Notes: a model not told the origin generated them from the sequence alone. 64,000 bases of DNA from GCA_000165345.1 CM000434.1:352001-416000; one strand, 5' to 3'; shown: positions 19,880 through 63,803, numbered from the stretch's first letter. Made by a program: numbers and translations.

Positions 19880-23410
<3,531 letters not shown>

Positions 23411-36400: not shown

Positions 36401-36793
36401 GCCATATTGAAAAATACAAACTGTAAACCAATAGAAATAAATAAACAAAACTTAAATGAAAGCAATAGTAAAACTAAATGTGTATGCCCTCCTGGATACA
36501 CATTGTGCAGTTCAATTGATTATTATTTTGGAAATCATATTAGTACCTTTGATAAGAGTAGAAAGATAGAAATAAGAACTCCTGAAGGTATTTTTTCAGA
36601 TAATTTTGTTCTTAACCAAGGTGGGATATTCGATCAAGTTTATGAAGAAGATAAAGAAAAATATTGCAATAAACCAGGAGCAAAAGCCATGTGTAGTTCC
36701 AATTCTGAACTGCTAGATACATTAAAACATTTTGGAATAAAGGACTTGTATTCAATGTTTGTTCGCTTTCAAAGTGCTGAAGAATCTAGCTAA
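33413..36793 (+). CDS. Secreted thrombospondin type-1 repeat (TSP1) protein (1126 aa) with Cys-rich/EGF-like modules. A TRAP/CpTSP-family candidate adhesin. No C-terminal TM segment is evident.
   Basis: The signal peptide is 'MSGVFNKFVICSFLVIFLCLGPEH'. TSP1 signatures are 'WSSWSACTNECGWGIQTRGRR', 'WSRWSSCNNENGDFIQKRTR' and 'SSWSDWSGCSSPCK'. An EGF-like module is 'CVCPPGYTLCSS'. Asn-rich low-complexity stretches are present. Confidence 0.85.
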   Translation: MSGVFNKFVICSFLVIFLCLGPEHVEFHLVNGNKVDLNQIEGNGRFEVENRKLIKSNSQINDDINATTKYSDYNGYNLPENSSVFSDRELKFNGLNITSYENRQLYIDSNGSISSTNNNSETNSLNGEIPNNSSEFPIKSIGKEHVISEHIDNHVNSQYGNNHENFTNITGKEVNYNNFNISNNEQIRLDTLQAINNSFNVLTVDFSMIYDDLTFEPNLKSNVEYTIFNTSNIEVKKKIAKEIKTNNDGNFVVNLEDYSSYGFVTWIKPVESNSTKVVLQSNSGIMPNMKIKLLEKLFPRRNFTNDELDVIILSESRNEIRPYGYRGSPMILTQFIENIDLNNENEDIFSFIETIETLNQTSYLKNSNNSLQIIDDTGNNAAFEFWNNSFLLHDNPDILSINCNYYNEWSSWSACTNECGWGIQTRGRRINANLIDKSFQLSDFEISEMLRKCKVQVQTQGCTSKIGCCEYQSPKENLWKNCTATCDKHGTEEQTVEIISNKKGKVKDSKCENKKILKRKCLRLLGDKCKTCETTEWSRWSSCNNENGDFIQKRTRELTNGNCVYSQTKLEERRICEKIPLFSTSPMTNNENNSTKQKFLISSENLNDKEAIHEVKECELQKSEMKYNLIEGACECPNGVSYCDNTVIENDKTSWESHLKEICNKKTDAFSDKNLMIMAKGKRLYNCKTKNWEKYTTTPLDSDCKNTYILCKVESNCMVSSWSDWSGCSSPCKSSTNDLDSTTILSTRFKTRKVISGECKEHSLFMEEECLDIKECPQTKYKLSVDKTSKELTNLLYSEDIKSHIKKTFTKLQMYSVQDDSVSNIMKNLFNNVRDIIIRNSEYIYELNFNLNVFGGDGNYHIQSYISFILSKYNFDDSELVKDIIIWVTIPTDENKEVLYEKLSKNDRQIIGSNKDETNKFLENLFPSKLSSIKNETEQNSSIQTGDLLTKNFSSSNNSNLNIENSQAVGNFNSEKENEIFSKIINPELLFKLIQTAILKNTNCKPIEINKQNLNESNSKTKCVCPPGYTLCSSIDYYFGNHISTFDKSRKIEIRTPEGIFSDNFVLNQGGIFDQVYEEDKEKYCNKPGAKAMCSSNSELLDTLKHFGIKDLYSMFVRFQSAEESS

Positions 36794-46092: not shown

Positions 46093-46172
46093 ATGTAAAG
46101 AAATACATTTTAGCGCCATTAAATTCGTATTTTTCTCCATGAAACGTTGAATTACCGTGAGTCTTGATAAAA

Positions 46173-46709
46173 ATGAGTGCAAGGTTAAGTATTGAAGATG
46201 TAATTGAGAGGATGGAGGACGAAAAACTTCGCTTGCTACAAAATCAGTCTGTTACGAGATATGACCCTAATGTTAGAGGCCGACATTCTGTTGTTTGTAG
46301 GCATTGGATTAGAAATATGTGTATGAAGGGGGATTTTTGCGATTTTTTGCACCAATATAATTATGAGAGAATGCCACCATGCTTTATATATCAAAAGTAT
46401 GGCGTATGCGTGGATGAGGCACTAGGGAATTGCCCCTTCAAACACAAGGCAGATGACACACCACTTTGCGCGCAATATTTCCTTGGGTTTTGTAAATATG
46501 GGCCTAAGTGTAAAAGGCGTCATGAGCCAAAAGCAAGACACGAAATACCAGATTTTCTTCCCGACTCATTCCTATTATCTATAATACAGGACAAAAATTT
46601 AATACCTAAAATGGATCCAGAAACATCTTCCATCATCAAAGTATTAGATGACATTTGCAAAGAAAGCTATGCACAAGCTGTGTGCTCGGAAGTATCAAGT
46701 AATATTTAA
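46173..46709 (+). CDS. CPSF30/Yth1-type CCCH zinc-finger cleavage and polyadenylation factor subunit. The ORF-track TTG at 46164 is replaced by the ATG at 46173.
   Basis: Three tandem CCCH fingers are present: 'CRHWIRNMCMKGDFCDFLHQYNYERMPPCFIYQKYGVCVDEALGNCPFKH...PLCAQYFLGFCKYGPKCKRRHE'. They align to CPSF30 '[46 protein letters not shown]...CPWYDRGFCKHGPLCRHRH'. Confidence 0.8.
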   Translation: MSARLSIEDVIERMEDEKLRLLQNQSVTRYDPNVRGRHSVVCRHWIRNMCMKGDFCDFLHQYNYERMPPCFIYQKYGVCVDEALGNCPFKHKADDTPLCAQYFLGFCKYGPKCKRRHEPKARHEIPDFLPDSFLLSIIQDKNLIPKMDPETSSIIKVLDDICKESYAQAVCSEVSSNI

Positions 46710-46796: not shown

Positions 46797-49700
46797 TTAT
46801 AGCCACGGCATCCATGTTGGCTTCATGGCAGAAAGGTTTTTAGGATCCGTAGAACATTCTATCAGCTCAAGTACACTTCTGTCAATGAGTTGACTATTTT
46901 CATTGATTGGCCTAGGATTAGTTAATACTGCTATTTTCTCCATCATCCTGCGAACATTTCTATCTACTTTCTCCCTAATTTCAACGTTAGAAAGTAATCT
47001 TTGCTGCATTATCTGGGAAATTGTGTTCTGAGAATGGTCATTTGCTGTGTTGGGCGAGTTTATGACTGTTTGCGAACTATTATCAAAGTCCGATTCTACG
47101 GAAGGGTTATTTGGTTTTTGATATAAATTACGATTTTGAGGGATCTGTAAAGCTCTATGGACAGAAAATGCATGCAAATCGTCTCTAAGCAGGGAGCAGA
47201 GTAAATTTCTTACGTGAAACTCATATTTTTGTAGACATTGAGCAAATGCGAGCATAGTACCTGGAAGGATACCATTCTTACCGAAGGGACCCATTAAATG
47301 TTCCATATTTCTTGTTAACCTAAAAGGAACCTTTTCAGTTTTATCAATAAGCAGTGTGGATGAGACATAAGAGGATTTTAATTCTGATTGATAAACCTGC
47401 CCAGTATCCAACGAAATAAATAGTTTTCCGGGAGTAACATCATTTACACCTAGAATATATGAAAATATTGACAGTAAACCCAAGTGAGTAGTAAACTGTT
47501 TAGTGAATAAAAATGATTGGTCATGCGAGTTGAACTTTCTTAAAATACTTCTTTTAAAGATATTATCTGGGACCCAGTTATCACACAGCTCAGTATAAAT
47601 TTTTAGCATTTCCTTATCAAGTTGTGAATTATTTATATTATTCAACTTCCTGAGTGAGATATTGATAAGCTTTCTATGAAGTAATATCGGGAAGTCAAGG
47701 TCTTTTATTGGGCATGTACAGTTACTGCTATTCGCTTCCTCTTCAAAAAGTTCGGTAAAGCTCTTCTTATTTCCTGTATCTTCAATGATACGGCAACGTG
47801 GATGCAATGGTATACAAGGTTGTATTGCAAAAGAAATATTTCTGGACCTGGTTTCCTTATATTTATATAAAAGTGTATTTAGTGTAACTTGAAGATGAAG
47901 AATGCGTTCCTCAACCTTTTGTTGAAGCCCACTATATGGCTGAATTAAGAAGTGTATAGTACTTCCACTAGAAGTGATAAATCCTATTCTTTTCAGTGTG
48001 TATGATTGTCTTACAACCGTTTCAACTGTAGGCAATGATCTATGTAGGTATATAACACCACCAATCGGATTATTACTATTTGTGTTTTCTAAAACAGCAA
48101 AATTTCTTAAGTAGAGACTTTCAGAGACAATTCTCAAATATTGTCCAGGAACTTCCAAACGAATATTGATTCTATGGAATAGATCGCAGAGAGTAGTTGA
48201 GAAATCCGATAACAGAGACTTTCCTCTGATATTTTCATTTGAATACCTTTCTGTACATTTAGTAAAGTGATCTTTCCACTTCTTGAGCTTTTCCAAGACA
48301 TAGTCGAGTTTTAATTGTGAAACCCTTTCAATAGGAGGGTTTGTGTTATTACATAGATAAACATGAAAGTCATTTTTAAATTCGTTCCAATATTGTTTGA
48401 TAATGTTCTTAGATCTTTCGAAAGATTTATTATTCAAGGATGAAGACTTATTCAATAACTGCTCGTACCTTCTAATGATATTGTGTTCCAAAAAGTGTGT
48501 TCCTATATTTGGGAAAATGTCGGATGCTTTTGTATCACTCAAATTCGAATCTTGAACAATGATTGATTCATCATTAATGGGGGAGATTTCAATTGTCATT
48601 TGGAATAATGTACGTATTGCACATAAGAGTTCATCAAGTGGGTCAGGTTTACAGTGTAGTACAATGTCTTCAACCCAGTGTTCAAGAGCTAAAGTTAGTG
48701 CGCCGTGTCTAATTCTACAAGTATTCATCAGTGATTCAATTCTTTGCCATCCCAAAGAAATAAAACTTGGATAAATTCCAGAAGAAGGCGGAGGAGGAGG
48801 ACCCTGGCTTGTATTTTCAGTTTCAGAATTAGAGGATAAATACCAATACATGTGAGCCATTTCTCTTTTTTCAAGATAGCTACTTCTAATATTAAAATAA
48901 ATACTTTGTGGGAATATTAACACAATCTTGTTTAAAATATGCAAAATAGCACTTCCTTCAATTCTATCTATTCCAGCTATCAATTGAGGAATCCATGGAA
49001 GCCAAACAGCGCAAGGTAAATGATCCGAATATTTTTTAAATGCTAATGAGAGATATTTTCCATCAGGAGAGTCATGTGGCAATAACCAAAGTACCCTTGA
49101 AAGTAAAATAGAGTATTTATCTGGCCTTAAATATATTCCCATTAAGTAAGAGATTACTGCATTAACTGCATAACTCATGTTTTGGTGTATATATAATAGC
49201 CTATCAGTATATTGAGCCCAAGTGATCCATCCTCTTGCGAATAGTGGATATACCTTTAAAGAAGAAAGTAAGTCTGCATTAACACGAACAACTGAAGTAC
49301 TAATACCTGTAGCAGACGTATTATTTAAACCAGGGTGTCCTTGTTCTGAGTTTAATACATTGCTTCCTGTTACAGAGTTTGCATTATTTGGAATTTCGCC
49401 ATCAATATAATAATTAGGATATAATTTATTTGAAATAATCCCCTTTAACCTCAGAAATTCTGCCCTGTATTCATCAAAATAAGGTTCCGGGCATTTTTGG
49501 AAATCAGTCATATTAAGGATATTTAGGCCAGTTCTTAATTGAGTAGTATCAGATAAGCAAAGCTTAACTTTTTCCAAAGTCGCGAGAAATGTTTCTGCCC
49601 TATATGCATCTCCTCCTGAAACCTGTAAATGATTTTGTAATCTCTGTAGCAATGCAACCGAGACCTCTGGTAAACGATGGGATTTCCTCGCAATTGATGC

Positions 49701-52700
49701 GAATTTTATCATTGTCCAGGGCATATCCTGCAAATAACTTGGCCAAAGAGATTTTGCTTGAGAAGTTAAATGGTCTGACCTACTAATTAGATTCATAATG
49801 ATAGAGAAAACAAAGTTTCTCCATACAAAAAGATCGTTCCATAATATCATACTGTCCCACTTATTAGGCAATCTATCTCTCCATACATTCAACATTCTGG
49901 CCTCAAAATAACCTGGCGTTGAGTTGCTTGTATTCTGAAGGTTCGAATGTGAGTTAATATTTACATGGGAATTTGGATTCCCTGTATTAATTGATTGTGA
50001 GCTTTGAGCAAGATTATTTGCATTTGAGTGATGAATAATATAGTTTGAACCAAAATTTGCAGTATTCTGAACAATATTACCGTTTAAGGAGTGATTAATA
50101 TTGCTATTTGGACCATCTGGGTAAAGTTTTCTTTCTATATCTGATGAGAGTCTGAAGCCTTCTTGCAGCTCTATATATTGCTGGAAATTTAACAGTAGAG
50201 GAACATGACATGTAGTTACTACGCTTGGTAGCATAGCCCAAAAATTTAGCACAGTTCTATAGCCAATTGAACAGTGGCGTTCAAATTCGGCTAGTTTTGA
50301 TCTCGAACTATTTTGAATTATGCTTTGTGAAAACTGCTGGCAGTAAGCACCATTATTTAAGTTTTGACTATTTGTTGAATTATTTACTCGATTCTGGTTA
50401 CTTATATTAGTACTAGAGTTAGACAGCGATTCTTGAGTTCCCTTACTTTGCAAATTCCAATTGTTATTAATTCCTCCTAATAGCAAGTCATATAAAGAAT
50501 GATATGCTTGACATAACTTTGTAATAGGGTTATGCAGAATATACTTGTTGACTAGTTTCTCCACTAAAACCCAATCTTGTAGTTTTGATGAGCATTCCAA
50601 TTGAAGTTGAGGGTTTCTGCGCTCCTTAGCAAACTCGTTTAGGGTATTCCATTGATTTAGATGCTTTGCGCAAGCAACCCAACTATCTATCCAAATCATT
50701 GTTTCATTATTTAATAGTGATGAATCAGAGTTTTCAAAAATTCTTGCCCAATTTAGAATATTATGGCTACAATCTGCATTACTATTAGTAGCTTTAGAAC
50801 TTGAATTATATATTGCATCAAGGTTATTGTAAAATATTTCCTGTGCTTTACTCCACTCCGCCTGCTGCATTAGCGCTAATCCCATATGGGTTTCGAGACA
50901 ATTGGAAAATGACCTTCTAATGCCAATTACAATGTCTTCTTCTTGTAATTCCCCATAAATTTGTGCCAATATCATCCAAGAACTATCGGGTCCATCATCT
51001 TGAACTAAGTTATTTTTAAAATCATGATTACAATTCACTTTAGAAATAAAGTTATTTTCTTTCTTATTAATGTTTGCTTGGGAGTTACTCGTATTAATCT
51101 GGTTACTTAAATAGTTAGATGCAATATGCCAACATCTTAATTTCGTTGATAAATGCAAAAGCAAAGTTGCCGGTAAAATAGGTGGATTGTCACATGATAG
51201 TAGGGAATCAAGTATAACATGCGGTATTGTCCATTCAGAAGGCATTGCTGAACTCACTCTATGATGTCTTTCTTTAGAAAGCAATTCAATAATATCAAGC
51301 GTTAATTCATTTCTTTGTTGGTGCTCCAAGTTATTCCAAATCCACGGAAAAATAGTTTTCCAAAGAGAGATTGAAATGGATTCGCTTGTACTTGAGAAGA
51401 ACAATAAAGAGTCGATTGCTAAACCTGGATTCCGTTTCAGGTTCCCAATAACATCATCTAATAAATCGAATTTCACTTGCCCAGCTACAAAATTATTATG
51501 CTGTGGTCTGTTAATTAGCGAAGAATTAGATTGATCGCTACTTGAGCTGTCTAGTATGCAAATCAAAGATATATCACTACTAGTGCTCGCATTGTCATCT
51601 TCATAATTCTCTTTTAATTTTAAATTTTGTAGTTCCCACCATTCTAATTCTACTTCTGTTAAGTTAGTCTTAAAATCATTTGTCTTAAATGATTGATAGC
51701 TTTCATTTGAGGATTTATCTAATTTATTAATAATTTGTTGCTCTATTGAGGGAAGAATAGATGGGAATGCTCCCATTTTATTGCTGATGATTGAACTTTT
51801 TTCACTAAAAGTCATTGTAGGCATTAGCAATTCTAGAAATTGAGTTATATAGAATCTCTCTGCAAGCACATCAAAATTTGATGTTGTGAATAAATATCGA
51901 AGCCTACCGAACAAATCTTTTGGCAGCTTTTCATTAAACCATTTTAGAAATCCAAGTTTTATTTTTGGATGAGGCGAAGCCAAACCTAAAAGTGCGCATT
52001 TCTCAAGTTGAGTCAGTGCCTTTTCTGTAAAGACAAAGGTATTAGCTTGTTTAAGAACAATATTGTTAGAAGAGCCTTCGATTTTTGCTTTGAGATTTCC
52101 CTCATAATTTAAAATAATTTTCAGAATTTCATCCTCGTGATTATTTAGAATTTCCTCCAAAAACGAATGGTATATTAGATGCATTTCAAATCTACGATTT
52201 CTATCGCATATTAAAGACCATCCTGTCAAAAGCGTAATCACTAACTCGTATTTCAAAACTTTAATAGAAGTCTCATCAGTTTTGTTTTTGTAATCTAAAT
52301 TCGAATAGAATTTTAATATTTCATCTAAATTATACACTTTAATTCTTCTCTTTCCCTCAAAATCATTCTCGACCGATTCATTCGAATCAACTATCAAAGA
52401 GTTGCAAACAAACAAATTTGAACCTTCTTCTACCTCAATTTCTAGCTTCTCCGATAAATAACTATTGATATTCAACTGATGATTAAATATCCATCGTCCA
52501 AGAATACTCATTAATAGATGAACAATCCCACCTTGAAATGTTATCAATCCAAAATCTCTCAGTAGAACAATAATATGTTGTCTAAAAACATTGCTATTTA
52601 AGCTTTTCATTGTAAAATATGGTGAAATCAAAATTAGTTGAAACAAGTCCGCACAGTTATTTAGTATAGAAGTATTTGATCCATTCAAATGTTGTAGTGC

Positions 52701-55700
52701 ATTAGAGACCGTATGATTTAGATTTTGAGTGTTTGATCTTGAGGTTGAAATATTCGTGTTTTTATTAGCATTTGATATGTTTGATTTTCCGGATAAAGCG
52801 CTCGGCTGTAAGCTGTTTAAATTCTGCGAGTTAGAACTACTATAATAAGCGAGAGCCTTATCCAAAACATATATTATTAATGGAGAAAAGTATCTGAGAA
52901 ACATAACAGCAATTTCTGTTGTTTCTTCTTGAGATTTATGGACATCTTGTTCGTTCAAGGCAATACCCAAGACCATAAACGATGAAATAATTTTGATAGA
53001 AGTATGAAGCGAGATATTTCTTCCAGAACAATTCGTAGTTTGCTCTGAGTATTGTAGAAGATTCGAATTATCATTTGTTGTAGTCTGGTTATTTGATGTA
53101 ACTTTGGCTGGGAATAGTTCTGGTAACACCGATAATTCTTGATTTACTAGGGACCAAATACCAGAAGTTGAAATATCAATTAATCTAATATAGAATGAAT
53201 CTATTTTGTTATCTACTGTTAATTTTTTTGACAGAGGAACCTTGAAGTTGTCAACATAATTATAATCCAATTCTCTAGGCTGGCGATCACTATTTTGAAT
53301 ATTTTCTTCATTAGAATATATAAAATTTACAATTTTTGTTATAGAGTCTTTTAGTTGCGTCGAAGGATGAGGGATTATTTGAATTATCTTACAAATTAAC
53401 ACATATAGAGCTTCAGAGACATTCTTATCATTTGAAACAAAAGCAGGCTCAAGAATTTGTAGAATTGAATCTAATTGCATGATTATTGTGGCAGAGGTTT
53501 GATGGATGCAGAAAACCTGAAGCCCTGCGATAAGTGTCAATTGAAAAGCAATGAGGTTTGGCGAAATAGTTTGATGCTGACTGTTTAGCCCTTGGCTATT
53601 AGTACTCGGATTCTGTGAAATATTGGATCTGGTAGAGCTAGAAATCGATGATAAATGAGAATTATTACTTAAATTAAAACCTATATCCAACCAACTGATT
53701 TGTACTTTGCAATTTGGATAAATTAAAATAATTTTCGATATAGTGCTGAATGATTTTGAAACGATCTTGTGGTCACTACTAGATGCCAATAAAGCAAGCC
53801 TAAACCAAATTGTTATAACTAAATCAATAATTGAGACGGAAGATGTTTCATCTTCAATTTTTAATAATTCTGCAAGTTGCGGAATTGATGAAATATCAAT
53901 AGTTGCATTTGCAACATTTCTATATTCTTTACCAACTCCTGAACATATACTTTGGTTGTTTTTTTCATCTTTACTAATTGAATGGGATATCCTTCTTCTT
54001 TTTAATTCCAAGTTATCATCAGAATCGATACAATGACTCGAAACTCCTATATTCACTTCAGCATCAAAATTACACACCCAATTAGTGATTACAATTAATA
54101 TACCAAAAATCATTCTTTTCATTTCAGGTAGGAAGGGAATATTCAAAATATTATTTGAAGGGAATGCAGATTGACCAAAGTTGTTCGTCATACCAGAGTT
54201 GCTGCCTGCATAGGATGAACTTGTAGATTGAGAGCTATTTTGACCAACTGAACCAAACCCCCATAGTAATTTGGTTAAAGTTGATAAAACTGGAGAAAGA
54301 AGATAAATATATTCAAATGCAAATATATTAGGGCGAAGTGTGATAATATTCCAGTGATACAATTGTTGTTGTAAAGGCAAATTATAACTATCTTGAATTA
54401 GTATTGCAATCATCAACCTAAGCCAGTTAGAAAATAGCGTTTCAGGGGTTTTGTCTTTAATAAATAGTTTAGGAGGTGAAGGTATTAGAGAAAATAAGCT
54501 TTTATCACTTTCATTTTCTGGTGAAAAAATATTTAGTGTATCATCTTTGATGATCGGTTTGATATTGTGCAAAAGTGGAATAAATAAATTCAGAGCTCTT
54601 CGAACAGTAAGTCTAACTTCAGAAACTCCATAAAGCCTTGTAAGAGCTACCAACATTGAAAACAAAATCTTCTCTGGAAAAGGATATTTTTCTACAAAGT
54701 AACACATAGTAATGTAGCCCCAAGACTTGAGCAAAGAAGATTCAGTTCTCAAAATATTCCAAACATCCTTTATAAGTCTTTTTCTGTTATTGGATATTGT
54801 TTCTAGAGAGTATTTATTCTTCACAAGTAAAATAAGAAGTTTAAGTATCTCTATTTTAAGAGGATCATCTGTTGCAGAAAGTCCATTGGTTCCATGTAAT
54901 GGGATTACATTTCTTTCCAAACTTGGAAGTATTATTCTGGTTATTATACCTTCACAAATATAGTCATTTAACCATGAATCTTCACTATGACGAATTTTCT
55001 CATTGTTTCTATTGAATTCGTATTCTAACAGTGGAATCAGTATAAGCTGTATACATGCAATTTGAGTACCAGGTAGAATTGAAGATGTATCTATATTAGG
55101 TCCACTTGGATAATATCTTTGAATGAGTTGGTTAAAAAGTAAACGCTTTTCTTGATTTGAAAGAGTTTTTGGAACTGTACAAATAAGGAAATCGCGAAAA
55201 GCACCACTATCAAGAGTTGAACTTGTACCAAAAAGAGTAGCAATTGTCAAAATAACGTCAATCCTTCTTCTTTTCAAATGTTCTTTTACATCTTGCCCGT
55301 GAATAATTGTCGAGAGCAATGATATAATTAATTCTTTAGATGGGTAAATTGGTTGATTATTTAAGGTAGAGTTTGATGTTGAGCTAATTGAATTGTGAGA
55401 ATTATTTGCGTGCAAAGATGAATTCAAATTGTTATTAGAATTCTGTATATTCTGCCTCATCTGGTGTGAAGTAAACGAAAAGCTATTAGAAAATGTTTGA
55501 TCTTCAGTTAAATTTTGCCTCTGAAAAGATGAGGTAGAAGATTGAGAAAAGTTGGTAATCGATGAGGTATTTGAAGGAAGGCTAACTGCTGAATATAATA
55601 CACTTTTCATTGAATTCTGGACGGATAAAATATCGTTAATAATTTCGTCGCCCACCCTGTTACCATAGCATTTTTTTTCAAGGTATTCCTTATTTTGTAC

Positions 55701-58700
55701 ATTTTCAAGATTGTTTGTTGCAGTATAAAATCCAATAAGCATTTTATATAGCATAAAACACTCATTTGAGTGAAAAAAACTCCAAGGATGTTGCCATGCT
55801 ACAGTACCTTGATATGCTAATGATAGTTCAAATTTATTATCAAAATTTCCATGAGTGGAAATGCCTCCGCTTTTTGTGAATACAACTAGCCTGTTAAAAA
55901 TTGTATTATACATTGTAAGTAGTATATCAATAATTGTTAGGGCAGACCTATTACTAGATGCATAATACTCCAGGAAATCAATTACAAGCAAGCTCGGCCA
56001 CTCTTCGCAAAGACTATTTAAAACTCTTATTCCGTTCCACGCGCTACTATATGATTCAGTAAATGCAGGAGAAACCGGAATAACATTGGGGTTTGCTTTA
56101 TTAATGTTTTGCGGCGCCCCAACAACAGAGTTATTGATATTTTGTTGGACTGAAGATCCAGTGACTTGGGAAAAGTTTGCTGTGGGGATATATGAGTCAC
56201 ACTTATTCTCAACATTCTCTGCTTCTTCTAAAATCCTGTTTACTGTAGACTCAATGAGTTGAGTCCTTAGTTGATAGAGCTTTACTCTAATAACAGAACA
56301 TGGACTCATCTTAATCAAGTCTATAAGAAAATTAGCATATCGATCAGAAGCAAGTTGTTGAATTAGAAACAAGACAACGTTATGCGGAGAATGAGTCGCA
56401 AAAAGTGCCAAAGGAAGGCGAAAGGGTGATGAAATGGTCATTGATGTTGTATAAGATGTTATGAATGATGATATTGAGGACTGCATATTGCTGCTTCTAT
56501 CAAGCCCGGGAAAATTCCTCGTACCCAATATTGTCCCAACCACTTTTGAAACAAATTCGTCAGACCCTTGAGGTAATAAGTGAAAGATGCATACCATTGC
56601 AATTGCCATGTGCAAATCTTCCTCATATCGATTAAAAGTATCGATTTGAGTATTAGCCAGTCCCGTAGAAGAATTTTGAGCTTGCCTTATAGATGAGCTT
56701 GCTTGATTACTGGAATTTAAAACCTCTCTTTGATATTCATTTGGCCAACAAAGTCTTTGTAAGTGTTGCAAAAGCTTTTCACCTAGAGTTACATTAAAGC
56801 AAAAACATAGAAGTTCTAAAAGACGTGCCAATCCCTGAAGAACATGCACCGTTAATTTTGTTGCAGATGCCAGATGTACAAGTACGGGTCTAAGGCAATG
56901 CCTAAGCTGATCTTCAGGCAGAAGTTCGTACTGACTATTGTTTGTATTATTCATAGATGAATTGCAAATATTTGGGTTGCCATTTGAATCCTCAATACCA
57001 TCTATATTTAATAAATATCTCTCCAACCTTACAATAACCTTCAGAGTATGATGCGCAGCCTTGCAAATTTCTAAATCTTTTCTAGTCACGCAGCGGAAAA
57101 GAACTCCAATAATCTTCCATCTGAGCTCGTCTTGAGATGTTTTGGTTTGGTTGATTCCCAATTGACTATTCATTTGAAATTGTTGGTTAATATTTGTTTG
57201 ATGCTGGTTTTGATAAATTTGGTGTGGGTATTGCGTCTTCGATTGATTTACATTTTGTAAGTTTTGGTGGTTGGATTGAGTGCCAACCTGTGCAGGGTGA
57301 TTTACGGAAATATGCTGCGCCAATACTGGAATAGGCTGTTGTGTTTGCTGAAGTTGAACACCTTGATTTACATTTGTTTGGTGAGAATTGTGCTGCAATT
57401 GATTGCTTTGATTGAAATTAGAACTTTGATGTATTTGTGTTGAACAGTTTGAAGGAATTGCTGGAGAAATAACTGGTGAAATATTTGCAGAAACAGGAAC
57501 TGATATTGAGGAGTTGCTTCGGCTTCTGAGGAATTCGGACCAATTTGGATGAAGAAGTATAAGTTTTAAAAACCTGATTGAATAAATTTGAACTTGAACC
57601 TTATTTTTCCTAAAATCTGGGTTGCCTTTATTACCTTGACTATTTTGAGCATTAACTTGGATATTAGATTGAGAAAAGCTATTATTCGAATTTTTTTGTT
57701 GAGATTCATTCATCTCACAGTCTATTTCATCCCTTATTACAACAAAAACATCTTCAACGAACCTTCTGATAATTGTCGACGGAATTCCAATAGGCGATGG
57801 CCTAAGTGATGCTAGAAAACATAAAGTATCTAGGAAGGCAAGCTGATATGGGGTGCTACAGGTAGAGATTAATTTGGTCTGAAGCCTACTTAACAGCTGT
57901 TGTAGTAAGGTCGTTTGCGAAGTAGCATTAAGATTATTTGTATCGTTATTCCCAAACTGACTGCTGAAGCTGGTATTGAGTAAAGTTGCAACAGAAACAC
58001 CTGTAATATTAGATAACGTAATAAGACATTTTTGTGCCATTCTTCTACAGGCAGGTCTCAAAGATAATATATTTGGAGTTATTGAGTTCATACATAAATG
58101 GAATAAATGCTTACGCAAAATATCCAAAATTTCATCTGGAGGAGTATTGTTTGCCAAAGAATTCATAATTTCATCACGTATTGCAACTCCAGAGTACCAC
58201 TTATCCTTTGATTCAGTAATTAGCATTTCCATATAAACACGATAGCTATTACTCCACCAAAATTCAGAGTTATTTTTCTTTAATTCATTAGTTTCATTTA
58301 TCACAGTCAATAGATCCTCCCAATTTCTATCGTTTATATTAATAGACTCGCCAGATAATAAAGATAACTTATTTTTTGGAATAGTTATTCCGTATTTTGA
58401 TATGGGTATTTTAATAACTTTAGAGCTAAAATTTTCACAATTAACAAATAGTGCAAAAGGTTTTATTCCCGTGAAAACAGAGTAAATCAGCGCATCCAAC
58501 GCGTCCTCAGAACATCTTTCTGCAAAAGGATTACTATCCGCTCCAGAGTCTTTTGAAATGAAGAAAAGAGCGTCTGAAAGTTTCTGGAAATATGTCTGGG
58601 CCCAAATAGGTGGAATATGGTTAAGTAGCTCAATAATCAAGATACATGCAGCTGTTTTTTTACTCCATGAGATGTCATAGCACAAATTTACGATATTTGA

Positions 58701-61700
58701 CTCGAGTAGACATGGGAGTTGAGCGGTTTGAAACGCCCTATTAAAGTACAATAATGGAAAGTTTTCTACAAGATTGTAGTAAATATTTACCATGTTCTTT
58801 ACTGCTGCAAGGGCTATGTAGCTTGGCTCTGTATGTTTCAAATGGTTATTGTGAGAAATTGTAAACTGAACGTCGATCGTATCAAATAAAGCAGATAAGA
58901 TCGGAGCAACCGGGTCAGTTTTCGTATTAGACCAATATAGGTTCAAATTACAATGTTCGGGAATAAATGACCTTGATGCGGAATAAATAGCCAAATAATT
59001 TGTCAATCCATCACAAAATTCACCGACAGAGTCATGAAGTTCTTCAATAAGTGATAATGCCAAAATAAGTGATTTAGCAAATAGCTCAAGGTTATTCGAA
59101 TATGATGATTGGGCCTTAAAATTATTGCATTCAGAAATGTAGTCCATTGAAAAGGGAGTTGCCTCATTAGGATTCTCAATTTTCTCGGAATGCTTTTCGA
59201 GATAACTTGTTAGAAAATTGAAAAATGTTTTAATGGATTCCGTAGTTCCAATATCAGTCCAAAAGATCGAAAGATAGAGTAAAAGTAAATTTTTGATGTG
59301 CGTACTGCACATATTCTTAATTATTTTATTTGAGCTTATAAAATCTTTCTTAGAAATAGAAGATAAATATTTATAAACATGCTGCAGTGTATCATCAATT
59401 CTTAGAAACAAAGTTGTGTCTAGTTTATTGTTAATTGGGCTTGGTCTAATTAAAATGGGTACTTTTACACAAAGAGGGTCATTTACATCTAAAACTGCTG
59501 AATCTTTTAAGAACCATCTATTCTTCCCTCCCAATTTTCCTAGAATTCTTCCAACTAGTGTTGCATGCTGAAATGCTATAGATTGCAATGCATAGAAGGA
59601 TAAACTATTGTTCTTTTGATATCTGTGAAAGTTACTTAGCAATACTTGGGAGACAGGTAAAGGAATTGGAGGCGCAGGTTTCAATAGTTTACAAAGTGTT
59701 ACAAGAATTGATGGCCTTGTTTGAAATCTATGGGGCTGATGAAGTGAATTTGTAAGGATCGGATATAAGAAATCATGATGAAGATTATCAATCCAGAGAT
59801 CCAAACTTCTTAATGCCAATAAAACAAGCTCTGGATCATTGCTTTCAAGAGCATTAAGCATTGGACTAATTAATTGCCCCATATAAGGTAATAGTGACTT
59901 GAGCCTTGCCGGAACGGTAAGAGAGATTTCTAGCCAAATTTCACGATAAGGAGACTTAGTTTCTTTCTGCATTTTAATAGTCGTGTCTAGGAACCAGGGA
60001 AGAATAACTAAGAATTCCTTATAAATACCTGATGCTTTACCACCAGGGGTAATGCTTCTGAATAAAGATCTTAAGATTGACAGAAAGAAAATGTTATTTT
60101 GATATTTTGAGGCCATAGATGTACACAACGTGCATAAATCCACAACATATGGAATTAGAATAGTTTCATGTTGAGGATTCTGACCAATATATCTAAAGAG
60201 TTGCTTTAACAGCCTAGTAGATACAAGCCCAGATGCTATCTCATTGGTCTTATCCTTATTGACATTTTTTGAATTTCCCCCATAAATAAAAGTATCAGGT
60301 ATTGGTAAATCAATAATATTTTTCTGCATTTGAAATAATGAAATATTAATATTTTGAGTTAGAATATCAAATGGGAAAGGATGATCATCCGGATTTCCGT
60401 GTGGTGCAGCTGTGGGAGCAAAATTAATTAAATTATTTGGGTCATCTCTTGGATCAATAACGCTTTGAACTGCATCAGGAAATTGTATTGGTGTTCCAAA
60501 ATGGGAAATTCTTCCTCGAGAATATGGTATTTTCGAATGGCTTTCAACGTTGTCTATATGCGGGTCCACTACGTATCTTGAAAGAGCAAGTTTGTGATGT
60601 TCTGTTGGGTAGATTGAGCATGTCAAAGGTGTTGATGGGATATTCATGTTATTAACTTGTGCAATGAATGATGAAATGTCATATTGAGTAGATTCAGAAA
60701 ATAATTGTTTACCATTCAACGATTTCAGTAATATTTGAATAGGAGATAATTTACTACGTAATTCAGTAAATTTTGAGTTTGGCTCAACAGCTAAGGTATC
60801 TAATTTTAACATTAGATGTGGTAAAATCGATTCATAAAATACCTTTGCAGTGTGTTGTTGTACCCCCCAATAATGGAATATTAAAGAAATTTGTGGACTC
60901 ATACTTGTAGACCACTCGAATAATATCGAAAATGTAGCTTGAATTATATCTCCAAAAGATTGCGGGTGAATATAACACAGCACTGAAGCTAAAAGCTCTA
61001 AAAGCTCCTTCTCTTCTGGCATAATTGATAATGGAGAGTTTTGCTGAGGCTTAGCACCATTGTTCTGCCTTACAGCGTTATTGTGTTGATTTGCACCATA
61101 ATTACTCTGGATTGTGTTTGGAATGATTAGGGAGCTTGTTGGAATGATCTGGCATTCATTTCCACCTTCTTTTATTTTAAATAGGCCAGATGAGCTCATT
61201 GTGTACTGAAGACATTGACAGTATTCAACACTGCAGATTATGCCTTCAATTAATATCTTTTGTAGTAATTTACTTTCAGCCTCATTTAACATCACTCCAT
61301 TTGCAAGTTTTCTTACGTCAAAACGAGTAATATCAACATTGTTTGTATTGCTATTATTTGTTGTACCACTCATTCCTGAATGGTTATTATTTAAGATATT
61401 CTTGTTACTAATATCACTGCTTGGAATGGTATTCCTATTCAAAGTTGTAATATGAAAAATTGTTTGACGCGCACCAATTATGGTTGCACGAATAATAGGT
61501 CTAAGCTCTCTCAAAACATCAATGATTAATGGTTTGGTCTGATTTTCCATATCAGTTTCAGAATCAAGTCCTTTTTTCAATGCACTACAACCAGTTATCG
61601 AAATTTCACAATGACCTATCTGTGTATTTGCATAAGAAAACGAGTTATCTAACCAATTACCAATATTCGAAATTTCAATAAATTCATCAAGAAAATCGTT

Positions 61701-63425
61701 TAATACCGGCTTTAATGGTGTGAATGTAAGTGAATCGGTTTTTGAGTCGGGTAATCCTGGTATTTCCTTATTGATAGAGACGAGAACTAGATTATAAATT
61801 TGTCGTCGGAGCTGGTGAATTTTCAATGAAAAAATCGATAAAATATTCAATAAAATATCCCGAATAATAATATTTCTTTGAGTATTACTACTAGGAACAA
61901 AACCTTCTTTTTTTAATATATCTGGTAGAAATGCAGCAGATCTGATACAATAATGTTGCGCAGGTAAAGGAAGAGCTGTATCTAAAATATTTCTTGTGAG
62001 AGAATGTAGGCACTTCATAATTGAATCGAAAAAACTATCCTGATTCAAACTATTGCAGTATGAATTAAGGGAATGCTCAGCTCGCAAATATACAATTATT
62101 TCATGCAATATTGCAGAAGATAACACTTTAAGAGTTTCATAACCAGTACGTCCGTGCCCAATGAGAACTGCTTCATCAAGTAAAATTTCTATCCTATCGT
62201 AAAATCCCTGCCTAAATTCAGTATTCAAAATACTTCTTAGGCAAACCAATATTTCACGGCGCTGGTGAAGACAATATGGTGGGCAAAATAGTAATACCTG
62301 AATAAACCCCTGTATAAATGCTGACTGAGTTTGCCTTAGAGTTTCTGATATATGTTCGTCACCATTAAAACCCCTAAAAAAATGAACAAACCATAATATA
62401 ATTTTGCTACATGCAATCATATAATCCTGTACCAAAGATTTAAATGAAGATGAACGTATTATTTCTGGGATTTGTTCTGGGCTTATTTTTAGTTGACTTA
62501 TAGAATGGTTCTGGGATGCGCAAGATGATCCCATCAACTTTGGGTGGAAATCTCTAGGGAAAAGACTAACAATGTTTAAGCAAGAAACCAAATTAGGAGC
62601 AAAAATGGCGAAGTAACGTTCAATGAAGTGAGGATATAACTGAAAAATGTGCAATAAGGCCAGTGGTAGCTCTATCAGAATTCTTAATGATCGGTGACAT
62701 GGAAGGATCAAATTTTGAGAAGGGTTCGTATTATTTACATTAGTGGTGACGGGACCTCTATGAACATTTGATCTTACTTGATTTGTAATTTCAGTTAACT
62801 CTGGCAGAGTCGTTGAAAGAGCTCCACGAAAGAACAATTGATCAGGATCATCATTTACAGAGTTAATTTTGTCCGATTTAGTTGTTGAATTTCCACTTTG
62901 AATATAAATATCTTGCCCTTCAGTGCTAGAATTATTATTTCTATTTGAAATAACTTCCTGAATAAGTTGTGGCAAAGTGTGTTGTACATCTGTACATAAT
63001 CTTGATGCGAATCCAAGAAAGGATTCAACGACATTTTCTAATTTGTCTGTATAATTCTTGTGTAGAAAAACTAAATTACGAATTGCGAGTACTCCGACAT
63101 CATCGGTATCTCTATCAAGCAAATGTAAGCACAACTGCGCTAAATCTGAACAGTAGTTTGATATAACTTCATTCTGAGGCAACAATGATATAATCTCCAT
63201 ACATATTATACTTGATTTCTTATAATCATGTTTTTTTGCTGTATCATTCATAAGCAGTATGTTTCTGATCCCATCCAAACATTCTTCTAAAAATGAAAAG
63301 TAGGTTTGCTTATCAGTTGTGTATAGCTCAATTTGATCTCTTATATTTGTTAGAAATTCCAATTCCTCATTAAAATCATTTTGGCCAAATGATTTAAGTC
63401 TTGTGCCAACTTCTTTAATATTCAT
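46797..63425 (-). CDS. Tra1/TRRAP-type PIKK-family pseudokinase (HEAT/FAT repeats, kinase-like domain, FATC), about 5,540 aa, with extensive Asn/Gln/Ser-rich low-complexity insertions. The ORF-track start at 63446 is TTG; the first ATG is at 63425 (MNIKEVGTRL...).
   Basis: A single uninterrupted 16.6-kb ORF. The C-terminal FATC-like end is '...LIECSTDPKNLSAMKPTWMPWL', the PIKK hallmark (aromatic-X-aromatic/Leu terminus, as in TRRAP). The upstream kinase-like region ('GVIYLHRSLPTVETVVRQSY...RIGFITSSGSTIHFLIQPYSG'; 'GVNDVTPGKLFISLDTGQVYQSEL') lacks the catalytic DRHxxN and DFG motifs, as expected for Tra1. Q/N-rich prion-like tracts occur, for example 'QLQQTQQPIPVLAQHISVNHPAQVGTQSNHQNLQNVNQSKTQYPHQIYQNQHQTNINQQFQMNSQ'. 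Confidence 0.75.
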   Translation of the reverse strand: MNIKEVGTRLKSFGQNDFNEELEFLTNIRDQIELYTTDKQTYFSFLEECLDGIRNILLMNDTAKKHDYKKSSIICMEIISLLPQNEVISNYCSDLAQLCLHLLDRDTDDVGVLAIRNLVFLHKNYTDKLENVVESFLGFASRLCTDVQHTLPQLIQEVISNRNNNSSTEGQDIYIQSGNSTTKSDKINSVNDDPDQLFFRGALSTTLPELTEITNQVRSNVHRGPVTTNVNNTNPSQNLILPCHRSLRILIELPLALLHIFQLYPHFIERYFAIFAPNLVSCLNIVSLFPRDFHPKLMGSSCASQNHSISQLKISPEQIPEIIRSSSFKSLVQDYMIACSKIILWFVHFFRGFNGDEHISETLRQTQSAFIQGFIQVLLFCPPYCLHQRREILVCLRSILNTEFRQGFYDRIEILLDEAVLIGHGRTGYETLKVLSSAILHEIIVYLRAEHSLNSYCNSLNQDSFFDSIMKCLHSLTRNILDTALPLPAQHYCIRSAAFLPDILKKEGFVPSSNTQRNIIIRDILLNILSIFSLKIHQLRRQIYNLVLVSINKEIPGLPDSKTDSLTFTPLKPVLNDFLDEFIEISNIGNWLDNSFSYANTQIGHCEISITGCSALKKGLDSETDMENQTKPLIIDVLRELRPIIRATIIGARQTIFHITTLNRNTIPSSDISNKNILNNNHSGMSGTTNNSNTNNVDITRFDVRKLANGVMLNEAESKLLQKILIEGIICSVEYCQCLQYTMSSSGLFKIKEGGNECQIIPTSSLIIPNTIQSNYGANQHNNAVRQNNGAKPQQNSPLSIMPEEKELLELLASVLCYIHPQSFGDIIQATFSILFEWSTSMSPQISLIFHYWGVQQHTAKVFYESILPHLMLKLDTLAVEPNSKFTELRSKLSPIQILLKSLNGKQLFSESTQYDISSFIAQVNNMNIPSTPLTCSIYPTEHHKLALSRYVVDPHIDNVESHSKIPYSRGRISHFGTPIQFPDAVQSVIDPRDDPNNLINFAPTAAPHGNPDDHPFPFDILTQNINISLFQMQKNIIDLPIPDTFIYGGNSKNVNKDKTNEIASGLVSTRLLKQLFRYIGQNPQHETILIPYVVDLCTLCTSMASKYQNNIFFLSILRSLFRSITPGGKASGIYKEFLVILPWFLDTTIKMQKETKSPYREIWLEISLTVPARLKSLLPYMGQLISPMLNALESNDPELVLLALRSLDLWIDNLHHDFLYPILTNSLHQPHRFQTRPSILVTLCKLLKPAPPIPLPVSQVLLSNFHRYQKNNSLSFYALQSIAFQHATLVGRILGKLGGKNRWFLKDSAVLDVNDPLCVKVPILIRPSPINNKLDTTLFLRIDDTLQHVYKYLSSISKKDFISSNKIIKNMCSTHIKNLLLLYLSIFWTDIGTTESIKTFFNFLTSYLEKHSEKIENPNEATPFSMDYISECNNFKAQSSYSNNLELFAKSLILALSLIEELHDSVGEFCDGLTNYLAIYSASRSFIPEHCNLNLYWSNTKTDPVAPILSALFDTIDVQFTISHNNHLKHTEPSYIALAAVKNMVNIYYNLVENFPLLYFNRAFQTAQLPCLLESNIVNLCYDISWSKKTAACILIIELLNHIPPIWAQTYFQKLSDALFFISKDSGADSNPFAERCSEDALDALIYSVFTGIKPFALFVNCENFSSKVIKIPISKYGITIPKNKLSLLSGESININDRNWEDLLTVINETNELKKNNSEFWWSNSYRVYMEMLITESKDKWYSGVAIRDEIMNSLANNTPPDEILDILRKHLFHLCMNSITPNILSLRPACRRMAQKCLITLSNITGVSVATLLNTSFSSQFGNNDTNNLNATSQTTLLQQLLSRLQTKLISTCSTPYQLAFLDTLCFLASLRPSPIGIPSTIIRRFVEDVFVVIRDEIDCEMNESQQKNSNNSFSQSNIQVNAQNSQGNKGNPDFRKNKVQVQIYSIRFLKLILLHPNWSEFLRSRSNSSISVPVSANISPVISPAIPSNCSTQIHQSSNFNQSNQLQHNSHQTNVNQGVQLQQTQQPIPVLAQHISVNHPAQVGTQSNHQNLQNVNQSKTQYPHQIYQNQHQTNINQQFQMNSQLGINQTKTSQDELRWKIIGVLFRCVTRKDLEICKAAHHTLKVIVRLERYLLNIDGIEDSNGNPNICNSSMNNTNNSQYELLPEDQLRHCLRPVLVHLASATKLTVHVLQGLARLLELLCFCFNVTLGEKLLQHLQRLCWPNEYQREVLNSSNQASSSIRQAQNSSTGLANTQIDTFNRYEEDLHMAIAMVCIFHLLPQGSDEFVSKVVGTILGTRNFPGLDRSSNMQSSISSFITSYTTSMTISSPFRLPLALFATHSPHNVVLFLIQQLASDRYANFLIDLIKMSPCSVIRVKLYQLRTQLIESTVNRILEEAENVENKCDSYIPTANFSQVTGSSVQQNINNSVVGAPQNINKANPNVIPVSPAFTESYSSAWNGIRVLNSLCEEWPSLLVIDFLEYYASSNRSALTIIDILLTMYNTIFNRLVVFTKSGGISTHGNFDNKFELSLAYQGTVAWQHPWSFFHSNECFMLYKMLIGFYTATNNLENVQNKEYLEKKCYGNRVGDEIINDILSVQNSMKSVLYSAVSLPSNTSSITNFSQSSTSSFQRQNLTEDQTFSNSFSFTSHQMRQNIQNSNNNLNSSLHANNSHNSISSTSNSTLNNQPIYPSKELIISLLSTIIHGQDVKEHLKRRRIDVILTIATLFGTSSTLDSGAFRDFLICTVPKTLSNQEKRLLFNQLIQRYYPSGPNIDTSSILPGTQIACIQLILIPLLEYEFNRNNEKIRHSEDSWLNDYICEGIITRIILPSLERNVIPLHGTNGLSATDDPLKIEILKLLILLVKNKYSLETISNNRKRLIKDVWNILRTESSLLKSWGYITMCYFVEKYPFPEKILFSMLVALTRLYGVSEVRLTVRRALNLFIPLLHNIKPIIKDDTLNIFSPENESDKSLFSLIPSPPKLFIKDKTPETLFSNWLRLMIAILIQDSYNLPLQQQLYHWNIITLRPNIFAFEYIYLLSPVLSTLTKLLWGFGSVGQNSSQSTSSSYAGSNSGMTNNFGQSAFPSNNILNIPFLPEMKRMIFGILIVITNWVCNFDAEVNIGVSSHCIDSDDNLELKRRRISHSISKDEKNNQSICSGVGKEYRNVANATIDISSIPQLAELLKIEDETSSVSIIDLVITIWFRLALLASSSDHKIVSKSFSTISKIILIYPNCKVQISWLDIGFNLSNNSHLSSISSSTRSNISQNPSTNSQGLNSQHQTISPNLIAFQLTLIAGLQVFCIHQTSATIIMQLDSILQILEPAFVSNDKNVSEALYVLICKIIQIIPHPSTQLKDSITKIVNFIYSNEENIQNSDRQPRELDYNYVDNFKVPLSKKLTVDNKIDSFYIRLIDISTSGIWSLVNQELSVLPELFPAKVTSNNQTTTNDNSNLLQYSEQTTNCSGRNISLHTSIKIISSFMVLGIALNEQDVHKSQEETTEIAVMFLRYFSPLIIYVLDKALAYYSSSNSQNLNSLQPSALSGKSNISNANKNTNISTSRSNTQNLNHTVSNALQHLNGSNTSILNNCADLFQLILISPYFTMKSLNSNVFRQHIIVLLRDFGLITFQGGIVHLLMSILGRWIFNHQLNINSYLSEKLEIEVEEGSNLFVCNSLIVDSNESVENDFEGKRRIKVYNLDEILKFYSNLDYKNKTDETSIKVLKYELVITLLTGWSLICDRNRRFEMHLIYHSFLEEILNNHEDEILKIILNYEGNLKAKIEGSSNNIVLKQANTFVFTEKALTQLEKCALLGLASPHPKIKLGFLKWFNEKLPKDLFGRLRYLFTTSNFDVLAERFYITQFLELLMPTMTFSEKSSIISNKMGAFPSILPSIEQQIINKLDKSSNESYQSFKTNDFKTNLTEVELEWWELQNLKLKENYEDDNASTSSDISLICILDSSSSDQSNSSLINRPQHNNFVAGQVKFDLLDDVIGNLKRNPGLAIDSLLFFSSTSESISISLWKTIFPWIWNNLEHQQRNELTLDIIELLSKERHHRVSSAMPSEWTIPHVILDSLLSCDNPPILPATLLLHLSTKLRCWHIASNYLSNQINTSNSQANINKKENNFISKVNCNHDFKNNLVQDDGPDSSWMILAQIYGELQEEDIVIGIRRSFSNCLETHMGLALMQQAEWSKAQEIFYNNLDAIYNSSSKATNSNADCSHNILNWARIFENSDSSLLNNETMIWIDSWVACAKHLNQWNTLNEFAKERRNPQLQLECSSKLQDWVLVEKLVNKYILHNPITKLCQAYHSLYDLLLGGINNNWNLQSKGTQESLSNSSTNISNQNRVNNSTNSQNLNNGAYCQQFSQSIIQNSSRSKLAEFERHCSIGYRTVLNFWAMLPSVVTTCHVPLLLNFQQYIELQEGFRLSSDIERKLYPDGPNSNINHSLNGNIVQNTANFGSNYIIHHSNANNLAQSSQSINTGNPNSHVNINSHSNLQNTSNSTPGYFEARMLNVWRDRLPNKWDSMILWNDLFVWRNFVFSIIMNLISRSDHLTSQAKSLWPSYLQDMPWTMIKFASIARKSHRLPEVSVALLQRLQNHLQVSGGDAYRAETFLATLEKVKLCLSDTTQLRTGLNILNMTDFQKCPEPYFDEYRAEFLRLKGIISNKLYPNYYIDGEIPNNANSVTGSNVLNSEQGHPGLNNTSATGISTSVVRVNADLLSSLKVYPLFARGWITWAQYTDRLLYIHQNMSYAVNAVISYLMGIYLRPDKYSILLSRVLWLLPHDSPDGKYLSLAFKKYSDHLPCAVWLPWIPQLIAGIDRIEGSAILHILNKIVLIFPQSIYFNIRSSYLEKREMAHMYWYLSSNSETENTSQGPPPPPSSGIYPSFISLGWQRIESLMNTCRIRHGALTLALEHWVEDIVLHCKPDPLDELLCAIRTLFQMTIEISPINDESIIVQDSNLSDTKASDIFPNIGTHFLEHNIIRRYEQLLNKSSSLNNKSFERSKNIIKQYWNEFKNDFHVYLCNNTNPPIERVSQLKLDYVLEKLKKWKDHFTKCTERYSNENIRGKSLLSDFSTTLCDLFHRINIRLEVPGQYLRIVSESLYLRNFAVLENTNSNNPIGGVIYLHRSLPTVETVVRQSYTLKRIGFITSSGSTIHFLIQPYSGLQQKVEERILHLQVTLNTLLYKYKETRSRNISFAIQPCIPLHPRCRIIEDTGNKKSFTELFEEEANSSNCTCPIKDLDFPILLHRKLINISLRKLNNINNSQLDKEMLKIYTELCDNWVPDNIFKRSILRKFNSHDQSFLFTKQFTTHLGLLSIFSYILGVNDVTPGKLFISLDTGQVYQSELKSSYVSSTLLIDKTEKVPFRLTRNMEHLMGPFGKNGILPGTMLAFAQCLQKYEFHVRNLLCSLLRDDLHAFSVHRALQIPQNRNLYQKPNNPSVESDFDNSSQTVINSPNTANDHSQNTISQIMQQRLLSNVEIREKVDRNVRRMMEKIAVLTNPRPINENSQLIDRSVLELIECSTDPKNLSAMKPTWMPWL

Positions 63426-63803
63426 ATTAACAAAAAGCCATATCAATTGAATAAAAAATAATTAATTTACTTAGATTCAAAAGTATAAAATAATAGAATA
63501 TCAAGTAACTACAAATTTCCTTTAATAATAGTTTTTTATAATTAGCTCTTAGCACAAAAAGAAATACGACATTTATCCTCTCACTAACTTTTATGACAAT
63601 AATTTATCCCGCATAATTAACGCAAGATCTTGGTACTGTATTAACTTGCGTCTACTAAATGTTAACAGAATTATAAGAAACAATTTTCAATTAAAGAATT
63701 TCATTAGTTAAACACTATGAACATTGCAAATTAGGAAGAGAATTAGCTATAAATACTAAACTAATTACATGAATTACGTTAAAAATATAGAATATATGTA
63801 GAC

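Follow-up and report, generated by a model that had tools for sequence, protein, structure and literature searches.

A predicted full-length Tra1/TRRAP pseudokinase of Cryptosporidium parvum and the make-up of its surplus sequence

The 64,000 nucleotides (nt) analysed here (GCA_000165345.1, CM000434.1:352001-416000, Cryptosporidium parvum; hereafter the window) contain on the minus strand one uninterrupted open reading frame (ORF), 46797..63446 (-), of 5,549 codons counted from a TTG. The question that this locus raises is which protein the ORF encodes, and of what the length by which that protein exceeds its relatives consists. An earlier note, made from the sequence alone, had read it as a hyper-expanded Tra1/TRRAP pseudokinase in a single exon with prion-like Q/N inserts. 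We consider it very probable that the ORF encodes a full-length, catalytically dead C. parvum Tra1/TRRAP, translated from ATG 63425 through one exon and most likely serving as the scaffold of a MYST (NuA4/TIP60-type) complex, and that its expansion is usual in Apicomplexa. ORF calling and the sequence bear out one unbroken minus-strand frame, whose TTG lies at 63446 and whose first ATG lies at 63425, and no other ORF of at least 150 amino acids (aa) overlapping it was found within the window. The coding sequence is as follows.

46797..63425 (-): complete C. parvum Tra1/TRRAP coding sequence, 5,542 codons plus stop (identical deposited proteins; collinear profile)

The stop codon occupies 46797-46799 and the translation terminates in ...KPTWMPWL*. 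The 5,542-aa translation from ATG 63425 matches exactly four GenBank proteins of C. parvum (CAD98717.1, EAK89842.1, QOY41054.1 and WRK32772.1), is named there [quoted passage not shown], and is one called gene on the 1.3-Mb chromosome record CP141123.1. The gene is thus already annotated under this name and with the boundaries given here, and it has little value as a discovery, the old accessions CAD98717.1 and EAK89842.1 carrying both.

Family identity and domain architecture

That the protein is an orthologue of Tra1/TRRAP rather than another PIKK is upheld by Tra1-specific Pfam families and by the best matches among solved structures. Tra1_central (PF20175) matches with 264.5 bits (expect value, E, 2.9e-78; cut-off 27) and Tra1_ring (PF20206) matches twice, with 241.8 and 167.9 bits (E 1.5e-71 and 3.2e-49; cut-offs 27). 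In the PDB the leading matches are Tra1/TRRAP chains (1.2e-71 to 1.4e-58), followed by TOR2 (3.5e-12) and DNA-PKcs (7e-10). Of the three families FAT, PI3_PI4_kinase and FATC, the first two scored above their cut-offs and FATC below. From the N-terminus onwards the recognizable parts are the following.

59676..60236 (-): most conserved HEAT block, aa 1064-1250, the C-terminal part of Tra1_central (2.9e-78)
54564..57143 (-): Tra1_ring matches, aa 2095-2480 and aa 2711-2954 (Pfam 1.5e-71 and 3.2e-49)
49086..49901 (-): FAT domain, aa 4509-4780 (Pfam 2.6e-13, 50.4 bits vs a cut-off of 24.2)
47169..47918 (-): PI3_PI4_kinase-like domain, predicted pseudokinase, aa 5170-5419 (Pfam 1.9e-19, 71 bits vs a cut-off of 27.1; aligned to Tra1/TRRAP kinase domains)
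47376..47450 (-): degenerate catalytic loop to DFG, aa 5326-5350, GVNDVTPGK...QSELK (ungapped alignment with mTOR)
46800..46874 (-): FATC-like C-terminus, aa 5518-5542, ending TWMPWL (Pfam FATC and alignment of the terminus)

Residues 1064-1250 correspond to yeast Tra1 760-918 (6ig9_T) in the Finger region and are covered by about 155-158 family matches (the family total being given as 157), and the latter Tra1_ring part, within aa 2711-2954, corresponds to yeast Tra1 1858-1955. Against a canonical Tra1 profile of 3,745 positions, built on seven Tra1 proteins of plants and fungi, ten ordered local alignments lead from profile position 15 at aa 14 through to position 3745 at aa 5542. Since the canonical profile is collinear with the protein from residue 14 to residue 5542, the product is predicted to be a complete Tra1 with both ends present.

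It might be argued that the ORF encodes another PIKK (TOR, ATM, ATR, SMG1 or DNA-PKcs) that merely resembles Tra1, and its kinase and FAT regions do match mTOR, ATM, ATR and SMG1 in addition to TOR2 and DNA-PKcs at the values given above, as those of any PIKK would. However, the protein matches PF20175 and PF20206, HEAT families specific to Tra1, with E of 1e-49 to 1e-78, the Tra1/TRRAP chains lead all others by about 60 orders of magnitude, and the Tra1 profile runs collinearly with the whole protein. Furthermore, the DRH...N and DFG motifs are absent here, whereas the other PIKKs are active kinases (PMC5576489). Membership of another PIKK family with intact DRH and DFG is refuted by the Pfam, PDB and collinear-profile results, and we regard the chance that the protein belongs outside Tra1/TRRAP as next to nil.

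The absence of DRH and DFG from the kinase-like region, already remarked in the earlier note, was borne out by alignments to mTOR, TRRAP and fungal Tra1. In an ungapped BLASTP alignment, GVNDVTPGK stands opposite GLGDRHPSN of mTOR and QSELK opposite HIDFG, so that of DRH the first Asp alone is retained (DVT), Arg-His is lost, the catalytic-loop Asn is replaced by Lys, and DFG has become ELK. The same columns are equally degenerate in human TRRAP (LNRLNPEML) and fungal Tra1 (IDKRYPHKM), and the degenerate motifs are conserved in the nine Cryptosporidium species sampled. Loss of DFG is the published reason for the inactivity of Tra1 (PMC5576489), and the C. parvum protein, judged by these motifs, is likewise a pseudokinase. 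At the C-terminus, the claim of a canonical FATC end stood in part: the translation ends in ...KPTWMPWL and is FATC-like, aligning to ...PAWHPWL of TRRAP and ...LWMPYL of fungal Tra1, with TWMPW[LI] conserved in the nine Cryptosporidium species, but its Pfam score lies below the curated cut-off.

Composition of the surplus sequence

By the earlier account the surplus was largely Asn/Gln/Ser/Thr low-complexity sequence. Accounting by local alignment places 3,096 residues on canonical match states and 2,446 off them; of these unaligned residues only 775 are of low complexity and 1,671 are not. The word "largely" therefore does not hold, since of the surplus of 1,797 aa low complexity can account for no more than ~43%; the three low-complexity examples that had been named do lie where they were placed. 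This accounting replaced an insert list from global hmmalign, which was rejected as it had forced the Q/N-rich loop onto match states and had called aa 1556-1650 an insert though family members match there. Part of the unaligned sequence is probably diverged HEAT repeats and not true insertion, because ~650 profile positions are also unaligned.

The surplus is spread over more than 20 sites. By arithmetic on block coordinates, about three quarters of it lies upstream of profile position 2336, a region that comprises the HEAT solenoid and possibly the start of the structural FAT domain, and the remainder lies in the FAT/kinase head. The principal segments are these.

60252..60761 (-): conserved insert specific to the genus, aa 889-1058, 170 aa without low complexity (local alignments)
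58104..58529 (-): non-repetitive segment, aa 1633-1774, 142 aa, no canonical counterpart, no low complexity (local alignments)
57117..57524 (-): Q/N/S-rich low-complexity loop, aa 1968-2103, with 29 Q, 19 N and 19 S in 136 aa (composition scan)
55533..56234 (-): unaligned segment within the Ring region, aa 2398-2631, 234 aa, of which 38 low complexity (local alignments)
55305..55646 (-): S/N-rich low-complexity segment, aa 2594-2707 (composition scan)
52635..52862 (-): S/N-rich low-complexity segment, aa 3522-3597 (composition scan)

Judged by the alignments, the segment at aa 889-1058 appears to be the clearest true insert. The profile blocks that flank it abut or slightly overlap in canonical Tra1, it is 51% identical to C. 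serpentis, and its length by global hmmalign is 178-179 aa in every species. It carries the invariant motifs DPHID, SRGR, DPRDD, FAPTxAPHGN, FDILTQ and LPxPDT, and among 1.84 billion representative proteins none from outside Cryptosporidium covered aa 912-961. It lies directly N-terminal to the block equal to yeast Tra1 760-918, in the Finger, of which H1-H16 end near residue 960 in yeast Tra1 (PMC5576489). The segment at aa 1633-1774 is 44% identical to C. serpentis, and aa 1663-1815 is reached by at most one family match; the segment at aa 2398-2631 is 52% identical to C. serpentis and 214-236 aa long across species. An AlphaFold2 model of aa 760-1959 from a four-sequence alignment (mean predicted local distance difference test score 37, predicted template modelling score 0.32) was too poor to judge the folding of the inserts.

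The alternative that the surplus is a neutral, AT-driven low-complexity expansion without conserved content, as the earlier note implies, draws on real features of the protein. Its contents of N (9.0%) and S (10.8%) exceed those of canonical Tra1 (3.8-4.0% and 6.6-7.8%), a SEG-like mask covers 582 aa vs 181-285 aa in canonical Tra1, and twelve N/Q/S/T-rich segments total 874 aa by a generous definition (windows of at least 55% over 40 aa). These segments are also the least conserved class, identity to C. serpentis being 68% in the core, 45% in unaligned non-repetitive sequence and 31% in low-complexity sequence. Against it stands, in addition to the share of low complexity given above, the finding that 4,450 aa fall in 50-aa bins at least 35% identical to C. 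serpentis, 700 more than the whole of canonical Tra1 (~3,750 aa). The biggest inserts also hold their length within a few residues throughout the genus, and the Tra1 proteins of C. parvum, C. hominis and C. meleagridis are separated by single-residue indels only; one such indel, of a single N at aa 2646 within the S/N-rich segment aa 2594-2707, separates C. parvum from the other two. The Tra1 protein has no homopolymer run of more than four residues, and Tandem Repeats Finder detected no meaningful tandem repeats in the DNA of its ORF. Because the indels are of single residues only and real DNA tandem repeats are absent, the low-complexity loops appear to be length-stable. As a full account of the surplus, neutral expansion is largely refuted, and we consider it quite unlikely.

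The greater part of the surplus is non-repetitive and conserved. Segments such as aa 889-1058 are candidate lineage-specific interaction surfaces. The Finger and Ring are the activator-binding regions in yeast Tra1 (PMC5576489), and the genus-conserved non-repetitive inserts, aa 889-1058 most clearly, might be not neutral spacers but lineage-specific docking modules, added to these regions, for ApiAP2-type factors or parasite-specific NuA4 subunits. We offer this as speculation and hold it to be rather improbable.

The label "prion-like" fared less well, being a description of the composition of one loop, the Q/N/S-rich loop at aa 1968-2103. Reportedly, the Michelitsch and Weissman criterion asks for at least 30 Q+N per 80-aa window. 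This value is exceeded at one site only, aa 2003-2082, which peaks at 37 Q+N per 80 aa, and a loop is found at the site in all species (112-151 aa). Were the loop a selected, functional prion-like or phase-separating domain of the scaffold, its composition might be expected to persist; however, conservation of Q/N-rich composition among the orthologues was not found. Q+N drops to 34 of 138 residues in C. canis and, in the S/T/P-rich loop of C. serpentis, to 13 of 112; the best 80-aa windows of these two proteins hold 29 and 26 Q+N respectively, that of C. serpentis lying elsewhere than in the loop. In the 50-aa bins of the loop, identity to C. serpentis is 10-22%, and no run of Q or N longer than three residues occurs in Tra1. 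Elsewhere in the window, an eIF4G-like protein of 1,176 aa is encoded at 19880-23410 (+), with MIF4G (7e-31) and a PAM2 motif (1e-8). This neighbour has 43 Q+N per 80 aa near residue 249, above any Tra1 window, which suggests that Q/N-rich segments are nothing exceptional in this genome and that the loop looks like a product of genome-wide AT-driven composition. The conserved feature is the presence and approximate length of the loop and not a prion-like composition, and a selected prion-like function is in our view very unlikely.

Start codon, exon structure and neighbouring genes

The N-terminus had been called ambiguous between the TTG and the first ATG. The start can be placed at ATG 63425 because it is the deposited start, because the start region M[ND]I[KRSN]E is common to nine of nine Cryptosporidium orthologues, and because the protein is complete at both ends, profile position 15 pairing with residue 14. 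The TTG start is an artefact of allowing bacterial start codons in ORF calling, and the codons that follow it are most likely 5' leader rather than coding.

63426..63446 (-): seven in-frame codons from the TTG to the ATG (sequence; orthologue starts)

An out-of-frame upstream mini-ORF, ATG GCT TTT TGT TAA, lies at 63441-63427 (-) and ends one base before the main ATG.

GenBank models conflict over one in-frame stretch within the gene, apparently treated in some of them as an intron, which by its conservation appears to be coding.

56310..56378 (-): in-frame 69-nt GT...AG stretch, aa 2350-2372, VVLFLIQQLASDRYANFLIDLIK (model comparison)

Exactly aa 2350-2372 are missing from three newer models, KAL5368047.1 (C. 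parvum), WKS78283.1 (C. sp. 43IA8) and KAL3127521.1 (C. hominis), which is consistent with a modelled intron. If these 69 nt were removed from the mRNA, the protein would have 5,519 aa; the stretch does begin with GT and end with AG, and no other placement yields the same protein. In C. serpentis, however, where identity over the protein as a whole is 48%, the residues are identical at 20 of 23 positions; eight other species show conservative changes only, and the residues fall on canonical Tra1 match states 1520-1575. Moreover, the splice sites are weak (GTTGTC ... TTAAG), and the stretch is kept in older and in other recent models. Given its conservation in C. serpentis and its place on canonical match states, the comparison suggests that aa 2350-2372 is coding and that the "intron" arose in annotation or, at most, represents a minor "exitron" isoform; removal of the stretch from the mRNA as the regular course is unlikely. 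The single-exon claim thus holds in that most models, including the one matching the window, have one exon and the stretch is conserved as protein, but it has to reckon with the three newer models that drop 69 nt. A C. meleagridis model, POM82875.1, likewise lacks 19 residues, aa 3283-3301.

Two further explanations of the long ORF were considered and rejected. An assembly or annotation artefact is excluded by the identical protein on five contigs and by the gene in nine species, and a gene fusion by Pfam, which shows Tra1/PIKK families only, bar a weak DUF7222 match (E 0.005, under the cut-off).

The window is AT-rich (G+C 26-37%), and an Rfam scan of the whole of it gave no matches. A prenyltransferase gene lies on the same strand ~380 nt upstream of Tra1. 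A small CCCH zinc-finger gene at 46164-46709 (+) is convergent with Tra1, 87 nt separating both stop codons, and an MCM10 homologue, with an OB-fold (6.5e-11) and a primase zinc finger, follows downstream of Tra1 at 43149-44906 (-). Some 1.5 kb past the high-coordinate end of the window, on the strand of Tra1 and separated from it by one gene on its upstream side, lies a 943-aa gene with PI3Ka and PI3_PI4_kinase domains (L001 1719-4550), judged by which it is a Vps34-like lipid kinase of class III; that two genes of the PI3K superfamily are near neighbours is probably coincidence. At 33413-36793 (+) a 1,126-aa protein carries a thrombospondin type 1/spondin-like TSP1 domain (1.4e-11) and a 102-aa N/Q/S/T-rich stretch. 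TSP1-type proteins are typical apicomplexan adhesins.

Expansion in Apicomplexa, proposed role and known Tra1 proteins

In a homology search with the last 5,000 aa of C. parvum Tra1 as the query, all Cryptosporidium orthologues found (C. canis, C. felis, C. xiaoi, C. ryanae, C. serpentis and three further sequences) were 5,487-5,832 aa long, C. serpentis being the most distant at 48% identity. Canonical plant and fungal Tra1 proteins in the same search measured 3,733-3,889 aa, and some non-apicomplexan Tra1 reached 4,392-4,473 aa. The longest of the latter, P0161 from a Logan assembly (4,473 aa), is a complete Tra1, intermediate in length and collinear with aa 223-5542 of the C. parvum protein; together with the Tra1 of Achlya (4,392 aa) and of Chlamydomonas eustigma (4,419 aa) it means that Tra1 length varies well past 3,700-3,900 aa outside Apicomplexa too.

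Within the phylum, TRA1 of Plasmodium falciparum (PF3D7_1303800) is listed at 9,271 aa (PMC11036802, supplement), and the oversized Tra1 of Toxoplasma gondii (TgTra1, TGME49_268370; ~850 kDa) has already been remarked in print (PMC13601556). An exhaustive profile search with aa 760-1959 against the representative proteins mentioned above gave, outside Cryptosporidium, its best match to a partial Tra1 of T. gondii. Since the orthologues of the genus, PfTRA1 and TgTra1 are all oversized, the expansion is a trait of the phylum, of which Cryptosporidium holds the compact version. "Hyper-expanded" is accordingly apt with respect to fungal, plant and animal Tra1, which the C. parvum protein exceeds by ~1,800 aa, but not among the apicomplexan Tra1 compared, of which it is the most compact. 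This compactness would make the Cryptosporidium protein the most tractable apicomplexan Tra1 for structural work on the insertions that a NuA4 scaffold tolerates.

We propose, from homology and from experiments in P. falciparum, that this Tra1 would be the large scaffold on which activators dock in a histone acetyltransferase complex of the MYST (NuA4/TIP60) type. Translated from ATG 63425 through one exon, it would present an N-terminal HEAT solenoid (Finger, Clasp/Ring) followed by the FAT domain, the pseudokinase and FATC. About one third of the sequence that cannot be aligned would form polar low-complexity loops, the rest being non-repetitive and apparently conserved in length and residues within the genus. 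PfTRA1 is the top co-purifying protein of PfMYST and was identified in PfNuA4 only, not in the PfGCN5 complex (PMC11036802), and because of this a NuA4-type role is, by analogy, most likely for the C. parvum protein. Recovery of TgTra1 with GCN5b did not reach sufficient confidence (PMC13601556). The premise that the scaffold must dock SAGA is thus doubtful for this phylum, and a GCN5/SAGA-type role there is unproven.

Several points weigh against the reading of the ORF as a full-length, single-exon and catalytically dead Tra1 scaffold of this kind. Pfam FATC scores 22.8 bits, under its cut-off of 25.3 (E 7.8e-5, profile positions 8-32 of 32), and the three GenBank models named above omit aa 2350-2372. 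The boundaries of the inserts are approximate in the weak HEAT region, where global hmmalign and the local alignments partly disagree. Finally, the placement of the C. parvum protein in a complex comes from homology. Set beside the Tra1-specific HEAT families, the collinear profile and the deposited proteins, these points leave that reading very probable.

Compared with known systems, the protein is set apart from the active PIKKs (mTOR/TOR2, ATM, ATR, DNA-PKcs and SMG1). It has in common with them the head of FAT, PI3K-like kinase and, in its case, a FATC-like end, with weak matches of 1e-12 to 1e-5, but they lack the Tra1_central and Tra1_ring HEAT families and retain DRH...N and DFG, where the C. 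parvum protein has DVT...K and ELK. P. falciparum TRA1 is a likewise expanded apicomplexan orthologue, exceeding the C. parvum protein by ~3,700 aa (compared by length alone), and a major PfMYST/NuA4 component by experiment, whereas the C. parvum protein is known here from its sequence. In TgTra1 the conserved blocks are the same and in the same order as in C. parvum, but the spacers between them are 2-4 times longer (C. parvum 879 to 1070 corresponding to T. gondii 1648 to 2183), and no Cryptosporidium insert motifs were detected in the T. gondii spacers at E <=0.01. Tra1 of Saccharomyces cerevisiae (3,744 aa) and human TRRAP (3,830-3,859 aa), known from cryo-electron microscopy (5ojs, 6ig9, 8h7g), share with the C. 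parvum protein the domain order HEAT Finger/Clasp/Ring, FAT, pseudokinase and FATC (FATC-like in C. parvum), the Pfam families, the full-length collinearity and the loss of the catalytic motifs (PMC5576489). The C. parvum protein differs from them in being ~1,800 aa longer, with 20-24% identity in the aligned parts, and in carrying more than 20 insertions, including the conserved, non-repetitive 170-aa insert in the Finger.

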